Shown piece by piece: positions 34,026-36,095 of a DNA stretch of 64,000 nucleotides. Position 1 is the first letter of the stretch; each line of letters begins with the position of its first letter. The translations under genes and the position numbers were made by a program. Below the pieces are notes generated by a model. It searched no databases, was not told the origin of the DNA, and saw only the letters and a program-made list of their open reading frames with translations. The DNA is taken from assembly GCF_053078305.1 (NCBI RefSeq), contig NZ_CP166879.1; one strand, written 5' to 3'.

Positions 34026-36095
34026 ATGGCCCGAAATCTCAGAGCATCTCTGATAGTTGATTTGCTCGGCAATATCTCAGCCAAATCCCGCCAGTGGTCT
34101 CAGGAGCTGGGGGCATTCTCACACTCCGGCCAGGCGGGGCTGGGTGGTCTGGGAAATGCTGCCCGCCGTGCCGGGCAGGAAACAGATGTACTCGGAAGCA
34201 GGATGCAGCGCACGCTGGCCGGGGTGCGGGGCAGTATCCGCCATGTTACTTCTGATTTTGACCGTCTTCAGGGCAGTATTACCGGCACCATCGGGCGGAT
34301 CAGCAATCTTTACGGAATGCTGGCCGGTGGTGCTGCTGTATATGGCTTTAACCGGGGATTTATTCGCCCGGCAGCGGAGATGGAAACCTATATGATTCGC
34401 CTGAACTCCCTTTACAAAGGGGATCGGGCGAAAACGGATGATGTCCGCAGGTGGGCAATACAGAATGCGAAGGAAACCACCTGGGGGCTGGCTGGCGTCA
34501 TGCAGGAATATACGTCCAGTCTGGGCTTTGGTATGAGTGACAGGGAGGCCCGAAATTTTGTCACCATGCTTCAGGATCAGGGTGCCGTGGGCGGCTGGTC
34601 ACTGTCCGATGCACAGGGGGCATCCCTGCAACTGAAACAGATGTATGCAAGAGGCAGTATTCAGGCGGCGGATGCAAATATTCTTGCCACCTACGGCATT
34701 AATGCCTACCGCGTGCTGGCTGATCGTCTGGGTGTGGACCAGAAAGTGGTCAGAAAACTTGGTGAAAAAGGGCTGCTTGGGCCGGACAGTATTCGCCTGT
34801 TATTTCAGACGCTGGCGGAACAGGCCAGGGGAGCACAAAAGGACGCAATGAATTCCTGGAGTGGCCTGACGGCCATGATGGGTGACGTCTGGGATCAGTT
34901 TGCCCGGGATGTGATGGACAGTGGGCCATTTGAAAAACTGAAGGGTAATCTCAGGGGATTTCTTTCATGGGTTGACAGTGCCAAATCTGATGGCAGTTAC
35001 CATTCCCTGGCGGAAAGCACAGCATCAGCCATGAACCAGGGCTTTGAGTATGCCCGTGATGCAGTGACAGGGTTTTATCAGGCGATCAGAAAGGTACGCG
35101 ACACGCTTCAGGCTCTGCGGGATGCGGGCTATGGTGATGCGCTGGATCGCATTGGTCAGGGGGCACAGACCGCCGCGAAATACCTGCTGTACATGTATCT
35201 CGCCACCCGTGCACTGAAGGTAGTCCGCGCAATCGGGCTGGGAGCACTGCGACCAGGAGCGGCATTGTTGGGGTACGGATTATCCGCGGCGGCCGTGCTG
35301 ACCTCTCCTTTCCGCAAACCACAAACTACCGTACCGGGAACGCCGCCAGGACGCGGCCAGCGCTTTATAAACTTTCTTACCGGGGTAAATCCGGCAGCCG
35401 TTCAGCCAGTGCTTGTAACAAACTGGCCCGCAGGAGGGCTGTCCGGCACCGGCGCGACCGATACATCCTCAGGCGGACGTCAGGGGCGGGGTCGCAGGAA
35501 ACGCGGACCGGGGCGCGGAAGACCGGTCACGCCTCCCCTGCCACCGTCCCCTGTGCCACCGTCGCCCTCTTCTGGTGGGTCAGGGTTCTGGGGGCGCATG
35601 ATGGGGCGCGCCGGTGGGTTGCTTTCGTCTGCCGGTAACCGCATGGGACTGGGGCGTTTCTCCGGCTTTTTCCGCAGTGCCGGTGGACTGGCTGGACGGC
35701 TGGGTGGCGGTGCCCTGTGGGCTGGCGCGATGGCAGCCCCGGTTCTGCTGGATGGCAGCGCCAGTATCACAGACAAGGGAGAAGCGGTCGGCTCTCTTGC
35801 AGGCAGTATTGCCGGTGGTGCGCTGGGGGCGGCAGCCGGACCTGTGGGGATTGCCATTGGTTCCACGGTGGGCAGCTATCTCGGTAACTATCTGGGGGGG
35901 TGGCTGACTGAAGCCTGGCAGAAATTACGGGGCAGTGATGATGAAAGCAGTGGACAGGCGGTACAAAAAGCCTCTGCCCGTGTGGAGCTGGTTGCCCCGG
36001 AAGGGTGGCAGGCTCGCAGTATTGATATTGATGACACGTCCGGTCACGGACTGGATGTGAATGTCTGGAACGGAGGGAATTATGGCCTCTGGTGA
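34026..36095 (+). CDS. tail tape measure protein
   Basis: 689 aa; helical N-terminal two-thirds, Gly/Pro/Ser-rich C-terminal third; position. Confidence 0.8.
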   Translation: MARNLRASLIVDLLGNISAKSRQWSQELGAFSHSGQAGLGGLGNAARRAGQETDVLGSRMQRTLAGVRGSIRHVTSDFDRLQGSITGTIGRISNLYGMLAGGAAVYGFNRGFIRPAAEMETYMIRLNSLYKGDRAKTDDVRRWAIQNAKETTWGLAGVMQEYTSSLGFGMSDREARNFVTMLQDQGAVGGWSLSDAQGASLQLKQMYARGSIQAADANILATYGINAYRVLADRLGVDQKVVRKLGEKGLLGPDSIRLLFQTLAEQARGAQKDAMNSWSGLTAMMGDVWDQFARDVMDSGPFEKLKGNLRGFLSWVDSAKSDGSYHSLAESTASAMNQGFEYARDAVTGFYQAIRKVRDTLQALRDAGYGDALDRIGQGAQTAAKYLLYMYLATRALKVVRAIGLGALRPGAALLGYGLSAAAVLTSPFRKPQTTVPGTPPGRGQRFINFLTGVNPAAVQPVLVTNWPAGGLSGTGATDTSSGGRQGRGRRKRGPGRGRPVTPPLPPSPVPPSPSSGGSGFWGRMMGRAGGLLSSAGNRMGLGRFSGFFRSAGGLAGRLGGGALWAGAMAAPVLLDGSASITDKGEAVGSLAGSIAGGALGAAAGPVGIAIGSTVGSYLGNYLGGWLTEAWQKLRGSDDESSGQAVQKASARVELVAPEGWQARSIDIDDTSGHGLDVNVWNGGNYGLW

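Follow-up and report, generated by a model that had tools for sequence, protein, structure and literature searches.

Does the unusual composition of a tape measure protein (TMP) mark a working part of the protein, or only a piece of repetitive sequence peculiar to one lineage? The question was raised by a 64,000-nucleotide stretch of contig NZ_CP166879.1 (NCBI RefSeq assembly GCF_053078305.1), here called the window. The original prediction, made from its letters alone, had singled out positions 35280-36000 as the low-complexity C-terminal third of a TMP in a Mu-like tail module, rich in Gly, Pro, Ser, Ala and Arg and unlike the helical N-terminal part; such a region might be injected or membrane-active, or might simply be a lineage-specific linker. 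The stretch corresponds to residues 419-659 of a 689-residue protein, whose true C-terminus lies at nucleotide 36092, 92 nucleotides (nt) past the end of the stretch, and it is almost certainly the conserved C-terminal module of TMPs of the phage Mu gp42 type.

The identity of the protein was borne out by domain matches, by collinearity with Mu gp42 and by synteny. Residues 111-297 matched the TMP_3 domain (PF20155) at 67.4 bits, above the Pfam cutoff of 41, and PHROG 973, 'tail length tape measure protein', covered residues 1-688 (E=1.9e-217). The search with phmmer matched the protein to Mu gp42 (NP_050646; PDB 9ki1 chain g) with E=1.6e-97 in stretches 3-65, 72-562 and 540-686; the C-terminal 130 residues alone gave E=1.8e-18, and the two proteins could be aligned end to end with MAFFT. 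A novel C-terminus had first been suggested by a tblastn search against phage genomes, in which Mu aligned to residues 3-361 only. This was rejected because both MAFFT and phmmer gave a good alignment of the C-terminus, and the stop at residue 361 was attributed to the low-complexity filter of BLAST and the limits of local alignment. Mu gp42 is nearly the same length (690 versus 689 residues), lies in the same gene neighbourhood and has the same C-terminal elements in the same order: an NWP motif, a basic stretch, a Pro-rich linker, a Gly-rich block, a double glycine zipper and a docking tail. It differs in being only about 40% identical, in having a Pro-rich and Gly-rich block about 60 residues longer, and in lacking about 27 residues near 70-96 and nine near 363-371.

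Conservation was measured in an alignment of 22 proteins, namely the window TMP, 20 homologs from E. coli and Salmonella, and Mu gp42. Mean identity was 0.69 for residues 419-659 and 0.68 for residues 1-418, and the C-terminal architecture was common, column by column, to Mu gp42 and the 20 homologs. The ratio of nonsynonymous to synonymous substitution rates (dN/dS), calculated against a homolog that is 79% identical (L002), stood at 0.137 in the N-terminal part and at 0.179 in the flagged part, and it fell to 0.076 both in residues 564-633, which include the zipper, and in the C-terminal tail. Within the TMP frame, divergence was greatest at third codon positions (0.47, versus 0.17 and 0.13 at the other two). 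Purifying selection thus acts on the flagged module, and in one reading frame only. Because Mu gp42 and the 20 homologs share the architecture and residues 419-659 are conserved (dN/dS 0.18), comparison with Mu and its relatives returned the result that the original prediction had named as speaking against it: the region belongs to the ordinary, conserved make-up of a known protein family. The observation itself was thus confirmed and its interpretation partly supported. The idea of a lineage-specific linker failed for all but residues 499-516, the Pro-rich piece, where 17 aligned codons gave a dN/dS of 0.73 and which is the sole truly lineage-variable part; apart from it, only the Gly/Ser/Thr stretch 471-484 was poorly conserved (identity 0.44).

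The compositional bias was real. Gly, Pro, Ser, Ala and Arg together made up 58.9% of residues 419-659, versus 41.9% of residues 1-418 (Fisher p=2.6e-5) and 37.8% of six neighbouring tail proteins. Glycine alone rose from 12.4% to 20.3% (p=0.0095) and proline from 1.0% to 8.7% (p=1e-6), and local GC content was 0.634, with flanks at about 0.56. The peptide that had been quoted as an example, RGPGRGRPVTPPLPPSPVPPSPSSGGSGFWGRMMGRAGG, was found in the TMP from residue 493. Low complexity was a different matter, and the claim held for only part of the region. Shannon entropy in windows of 40 residues reached its minimum of 2.63 bits at 481-520 and was about 3.6-3.9 bits across most of the N-terminal part; truly low-complexity sequence was limited to about residues 471-563, and residues 564-689 were of ordinary complexity and strongly conserved. 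Charge and hydrophobicity were also unevenly distributed. Residues 383-563 contained 23 lysines and arginines and one acidic residue, which gives +22 net; the final 64 residues of the protein were acidic. Of all 19-residue windows in the TMP, the five with the highest hydrophobicity fell within residues 387-627, two of them (387-405 and 411-429) in the segment 383-427, the latter ending two residues beyond it. Residues 383-563 had no Pfam match at E<=1.

The glycine enrichment is periodic, not random. The flagged region contained 20 pairs of glycines separated by three residues; other spacings gave 8-14 pairs, and a count of 20 was reached in only 15 of 20000 shuffles. A double glycine zipper lies at residues 589-625, in which two runs of five or six glycines at i+4 flank a proline (G589, G593, G597, G601 and G605, then P606, then G608, G612, G616, G620 and G624); the observed count was reached in 4 of 20000 local shuffles. 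The zipper was uncharged and was the most conserved segment of the TMP. An exhaustive search with residues 440-689 against 1.84 billion representatives found 45 proteins at E<=0.001, and beyond the Mu-like family the zipper was the sole part in common, which leaves the notion of the whole C-terminal module as a mobile domain unsupported. In an alignment of 29 proteins (28 of these distant matches and the window TMP), G593, G597, G601, G612 and G616 were invariant; 15 of the 29 matched Gly-zipper_Omp (PF13488) at E<=0.001 and eight matched TMP_3.

Structure was predicted with AlphaFold2 (AF2) for the full-length TMP (27-sequence alignment) and for residues 556-689 (18 sequences). The mean predicted local distance difference test score (pLDDT) was about 44 in both runs, and only the TMP_3 domain (114-297) was predicted with confidence, with scores below 50 elsewhere. 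Assigned by DSSP, the models had helices up to residue 391, coil over 392-561, further helices at 562-574, 581-601 and 606-634, and short strands past 651, all at low confidence. The models thus tend to agree with the description of the C-terminal third as unlike the helical N-terminal part.

What this module may do is suggested mainly by Mu. In the cryo-electron microscopy (cryo-EM) structure of Mu, residues 674-690 are the only modelled part of gp42, and they form a trimer clamped between hub protein gp44 and spike protein gp45 (PMC11915804). The TMP fills the tail tube and is absent after ejection in contracted particles, and without it the spike binds the baseplate weakly (PMC11915804). 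The tail of the window TMP aligned with Mu gp42 through to its C-terminus, and the last 17 residues aligned with Mu gp42 674-690, the residues that sit docked in the baseplate hub in PDB 9ki1. By analogy with the Mu structure and from this alignment, the window TMP would set tail length and dock with its C-terminus in the hub/spike complex, with the product of the gp44-like baseplate hub gene of the window as its likely partner.

We give a probability of roughly 0.6 to a fuller reading, drawn largely by analogy, in which the C-terminal module docks in the hub, exits first on contraction and places its zipper hairpin in the host membrane. During assembly, the last 17-40 or so residues of three TMP copies would dock between the gp44-like hub and a gp45-like spike, and the roughly 170 residues of basic, acid-free, Gly/Pro-rich sequence would occupy the hub and the lower tube lumen as a chain that is non-helical and compactable, with the Pro-rich 18-mer as a tolerant spacer. 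On sheath contraction and spike release, the C-terminal end would leave the tail first. The marginally hydrophobic zipper hairpins and the hydrophobic segments upstream could then enter the host membrane and associate laterally, and the inserted elements could help to form or seed a conduit for DNA. The insertion step, also argued from analogy, has at best slightly better than even odds. A propensity for membranes is favoured by the position of the hydrophobic windows, by the i+4 spacing of the glycines and by distant matches that share only the zipper.

The idea that the region is injected or membrane-active also fits published work on other TMPs. In lambda gpH, a region rich in glycine lies near the C-terminus; the protein leaves a C-terminal piece on the hub protein gpI and, as gpH*, is a trans-envelope channel; in our own scan its residues 674-800 were 15-25% glycine and included GSAIGGAVG, a GxxxGxxxG motif, and the Gly-rich zone was preceded by a hydrophobic stretch and followed by the hub-bound C-terminal piece. 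The differences are that gpH belongs to a siphophage, that its cleavage to gpH* is documented and that it has no detectable C-terminal sequence homology to the window TMP. T5 pb2, for which channel formation has been proposed, and T4 gp29, which has a transmembrane segment beside a Pro-rich region and has been reported to form a channel for the genome, likewise have a ruler, hydrophobic helices, a linker and a C-terminal plug in order. They are of other families with no sequence similarity found; T5 pb2 carries a peptidase motif, and the transmembrane segment of T4 gp29 is in its N-terminal half. The closest likeness to the zipper was found in the Pfam families Gly-zipper_Omp and 2TM glycine zipper (PF05433) and in Tde1, a toxin secreted by the type VI secretion system (T6SS), all of which have two runs of five glycines at i+4 with a Gly-Pro turn between them. 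The glycine zippers that Burkholderia prophage TMPs carry in their C-terminal region resemble the N-terminal part of Tde1, whose own zipper is needed to permeabilise the membrane and for translocation. The similarity of these families to the window TMP is at the level of the motif and under the Pfam cutoff, and it does not imply common ancestry.

Several observations weigh against this reading. No experiment or structure places the C-terminal third of a Mu-type TMP in a membrane, and the Mu cryo-EM map is unresolved upstream of gp42 residue 674 (PMC11915804). The hydrophobic windows were marginal, with summed Hessa-scale values of +5 to +7, unlike classical transmembrane helices, and with pLDDT below 50 across the region the modelled zipper hairpin and tail strands are weakly supported. 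The copy number may be three or six. The window TMP also fell short of the PF13488 cutoff of 25 bits, scoring 17.8 bits as a whole protein and 21.3 bits for its C-terminal 130 residues, as did Mu gp42 (17.8-21.8 bits for the two proteins); PF05433 was not detected in the TMP and reached 13.3 bits in Mu gp42, against a cutoff of 24.2. Because both proteins score under the Pfam cutoff, residues 589-625 are, as judged from sequence, a glycine-zipper motif and not a member of a glycine-zipper family.

A rival explanation is that the C-terminal third serves assembly only, anchoring the TMP in the hub and filling the hub and lower tube lumen, with conservation reflecting packing and assembly contacts and with no membrane activity. 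Docking between hub and spike is the sole structurally documented role of the Mu gp42 C-terminus, the weak binding of the spike when the TMP is missing is in keeping with such a role (PMC11915804), the positive and nearly acid-free chain would suit an acidic lumen, and the sub-threshold Pfam scores of the zipper also favour it. This explanation is nonetheless rather unlikely to be the whole account: conservation is highest in an uncharged GxxxG hairpin of a kind that recurs in membrane-associated glycine-zipper families, and the TMPs of T5, lambda and T4, with analogous hydrophobic elements in this part of the protein, have been reported or proposed as channel formers. It is less probable still that the Gly-rich, basic stretch is a site of maturation cleavage, as in lambda gpH (to gpH* and gpHC) or T5 pb2 (to pb2C), so that the plug in the virion would be a separate peptide. 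In T5 pb2 the cut falls immediately ahead of the modelled 35-residue plug, and the layout of the window TMP is similar (Gly-rich region, linker, plug), but nothing shows that Mu gp42 is cleaved, and homology to the lambda C-terminal domain is absent: Tape_meas_lam_C (PF09718) was found in lambda gpH (E=1.2e-11) and not in C-terminal fragments of the TMP at E<=1. Such cleavage would be compatible with membrane entry of the zipper.

The remaining alternatives deny the region a function of its own or deny that it is made. A neutral low-complexity spacer, driven by composition and contributing only length to the ruler, describes residues 499-516 well, given their low identity, relaxed dN/dS and 15-nt tandem repeat, and perhaps the variable residues 471-484; indels among homologs are concentrated between 472 and 548, including a duplication of 82 residues in one homolog and a deletion of 22 in another. 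For the region as a whole this is very improbable and, judging by the alignments, refuted: the remainder is conserved like the N-terminal domain and under purifying selection, the architecture is common with Mu at about 40% overall identity, and the glycine periodicity is non-random. There is next to no chance that the stretch is an annotation artefact, in which GC-rich DNA hides a frameshift or an overlapping gene and the peptide is not made. Open reading frames (ORFs) do exist in other frames (35614-35907 on the plus strand, 97 residues, and 35480-35866 on the minus strand, 128 residues). Because divergence from the homologs falls mainly on the third codon positions of the TMP frame, these are non-coding, GC-driven noise, and an overlapping gene or frameshift was rejected; long spurious ORFs are expected at 63% GC, and the TMP frame, which has no internal stop, stays collinear with Mu gp42 right up to the final residue.

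The odd GC-rich, Gly/Pro/Arg-rich stretch is therefore a genuine, conserved part of a tail protein and not an anomaly, a linker or a mis-annotation. The best-conserved element of Mu-type TMPs is a double GxxxG segment, predicted to be a hairpin, near the C-terminus and beside a nearly acid-free basic chain, and not the ruler domain. Hairpin and chain offer targets for mutation in studies of inner-membrane opening by Mu-like myophages, which the Mu cryo-EM work was unable to resolve. More tentatively, and with the balance tilted against it, the hairpin could be the pore-forming or membrane-seeding element of Mu-type myophage TMPs, mechanistically equivalent to the translocation zipper of Tde1 and to the 2TM glycine-zipper lipoproteins, with the acid-free +22 Gly/Pro/Arg chain as an extensible tether spanning the periplasm and containing a duplicable unit of about 82 residues. 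If this were so, the TMP family would provide a compact, sequence-defined model for the crossing of the inner membrane by contractile-tail phages.

A by-product of the analysis is a residue-level map of the structurally unresolved C-terminal third of Mu-type TMPs (Table 1).

Table 1. Elements of the C-terminal third of the window TMP, in order, with the TMP gene and its neighbours
Feature	TMP residues	Window position (nt)	Strand	Observations
Tail sheath gene		31532-33034		5' of TMP gene
Tail tube gene		33043-33408		5' of TMP gene
Gp41_Mu-type tail assembly chaperone gene		33405-33899		5' of TMP gene
TMP gene, phage Mu gp42 ortholog		34026..36095	+	689 aa + stop; assigned by ORF, Pfam, PHROG, phmmer
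Conserved hydrophobic/amphipathic basic segment AAKYLLYMYLATRALKVVRAIGLGALRPGAALLGYGLSAAAVLTS	383-427	35172..35306	+	mean identity 0.68; 5 K+R, 0 D+E
Conserved motif block GRGQRFINFLTGVNPAAVQPVLVTNWP, ends in NWP	428-470	35307..35435	+	mean identity 0.80 (22 homologs)
Variable Gly/Ser/Thr stretch	471-484	35436..35477	+	mean identity 0.44; indels at 472, 477, 482
Basic cluster RQGRGRRKRGPGRG	485-498	35478..35519	+	7 K+R, 0 D+E in 14 aa; mean identity 0.64
Pro-rich linker RPVTPPLPPSPVPPSPSS	499-516	35520..35573	+	mean identity 0.33; dN/dS 0.73 vs L002, 17 codons
Gly/Arg/aromatic-rich block GFWGRMMGRAGGLLSSAGNRMGLGRFSGFFRSAGGLAGRLGGGA	517-563	35574..35714	+	6 K+R, 0 D+E, 5 aromatics; mean identity 0.66; dN/dS 0.23
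Conserved segment LWAGAMAAPVLLD..AS..DK, predicted short helix	564-588	35715..35789	+	mean identity 0.71; low-confidence AF2 helix 562-574
Double glycine zipper, predicted helix-turn-helix hairpin	589-625	35790..35900	+	identity 0.85, entropy 0.45
WLTEAWQK, then variable acidic linker	626-650	35901..35975	+	identity 0.82 (626-633), 0.57 (634-650)
Conserved C-terminal tail ARVELVAPEGW...GLDVNVWNGGNYGLW, predicted beta strands, putative hub/spike docking end	651-689	35976..36092	+	identity 0.74; dN/dS 0.076
DNA_circ_N/gp43-like gene		36061-37431		3' of TMP gene
gp44-like baseplate hub gene		37415..38539	+	Pfam Gp44-like_2nd, GpP-like_1st, GpP_4th

Within the motif block, V462 and V464 were invariant and N466 nearly so in the 27-sequence alignment, and N466, W467 and P468 were invariant in a four-sequence alignment that included Mu. 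The basic cluster retained the pattern R.GR.K(R/K)GPG(R/K)G across E. coli and Salmonella homologs. A reading of RRKRGPGRGRP in this cluster as an AT-hook was rejected: there is a single RGRP, at residue 497, most homologs have RGRG or KGRG in its place, and Pfam gave no AT_hook match. The Pro-rich 18-mer is swapped for the non-Pro sequence VVTAGEQLAESAG in Salmonella and in a second E. coli lineage, and in Mu it is longer and also Pro-rich. A 15-nt tandem repeat of about two copies at 35539-35568 codes for PPSPV/PPSPS in this linker and is likely a product of slippage; the other short DNA repeats look like chance. With just this one repeat, in the Pro-rich piece, DNA repeats were rejected as the origin of the low complexity.

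Of the indels clustered at 472-548, the deletion of 22 residues is in homolog P0010. Homolog P0004, a 771-residue E. coli TMP present on 39 contigs, carries at its residues ~480-640 a unit of about 82 residues in two diverged tandem copies, which amounts to an insertion after residue 548 of the window TMP. The unit consists of the basic cluster, the linker and GFFGRMM...GLGRF (residues 485-516 and 517-563 of the window TMP), and its two copies differ, one having the Pro-rich linker and the other lacking it.

The TMPs of Mu-like prophages in E. coli (for example O157:H7 Z852, WP_000113522.1) and Salmonella were like the window TMP, and the second E. coli lineage had about 78% DNA identity to it. 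When window positions 34026-36095 were compared with the corresponding gene of E. coli O157:H7 Z852 (L003:3001-5076), synonymous divergence (dS) was 0.064 over residues 1-418, 0.159 over residues 419-659 and 0 over the last 39 codons. Because dS is this uneven along the gene, recombination mosaicism inside the TMP gene is suggested.

The TMP gene lies in a contractile tail module, flanked by the tail assembly chaperone gene on one side and the tube-initiator/hub genes on the other, the position taken by genes of the Mu gp42 type. Close DNA matches to it were found in 226 of 5426 complete E. coli genomes; identity was 99% in two genomes, 95-99% in 192 records and within a band of 60-80%, that of the second E. 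coli lineage, in 31 records. All of the matches examined were annotated 'tape measure protein', including the RefSeq label of a 99%-identical copy in E. coli 2013C-4081, which belongs to a complete Mu-like prophage that also encodes Gam, Mor, Com, a DNA methyltransferase and an invertase. The window TMP is encoded by a Mu-like prophage of E. coli, one that is common in this species.

Two observations outside the TMP gene were made along the way. A 60-residue ORF at 33841-34023 on the plus strand runs in the +1 frame across the 3' end of the gp41-like chaperone gene, matches phrog_12783 (E=4e-39) and fills a gap of 127 nt without RefSeq annotation in the 99%-identical prophage of NZ_CP027573.1 (L006 19874-20001). 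It is probably a frameshift extension of the tail assembly chaperone, which would require a shift of +1 or -2; a C CGG GGG CGA run occurs at about 33862-33871. In NZ_CP027573.1 (L006 34359-34811), a 5'-truncated dacD pseudogene adjoins the Mu-like prophage, and because of this adjacency dacD appears to have been the target of transposition in that genome.

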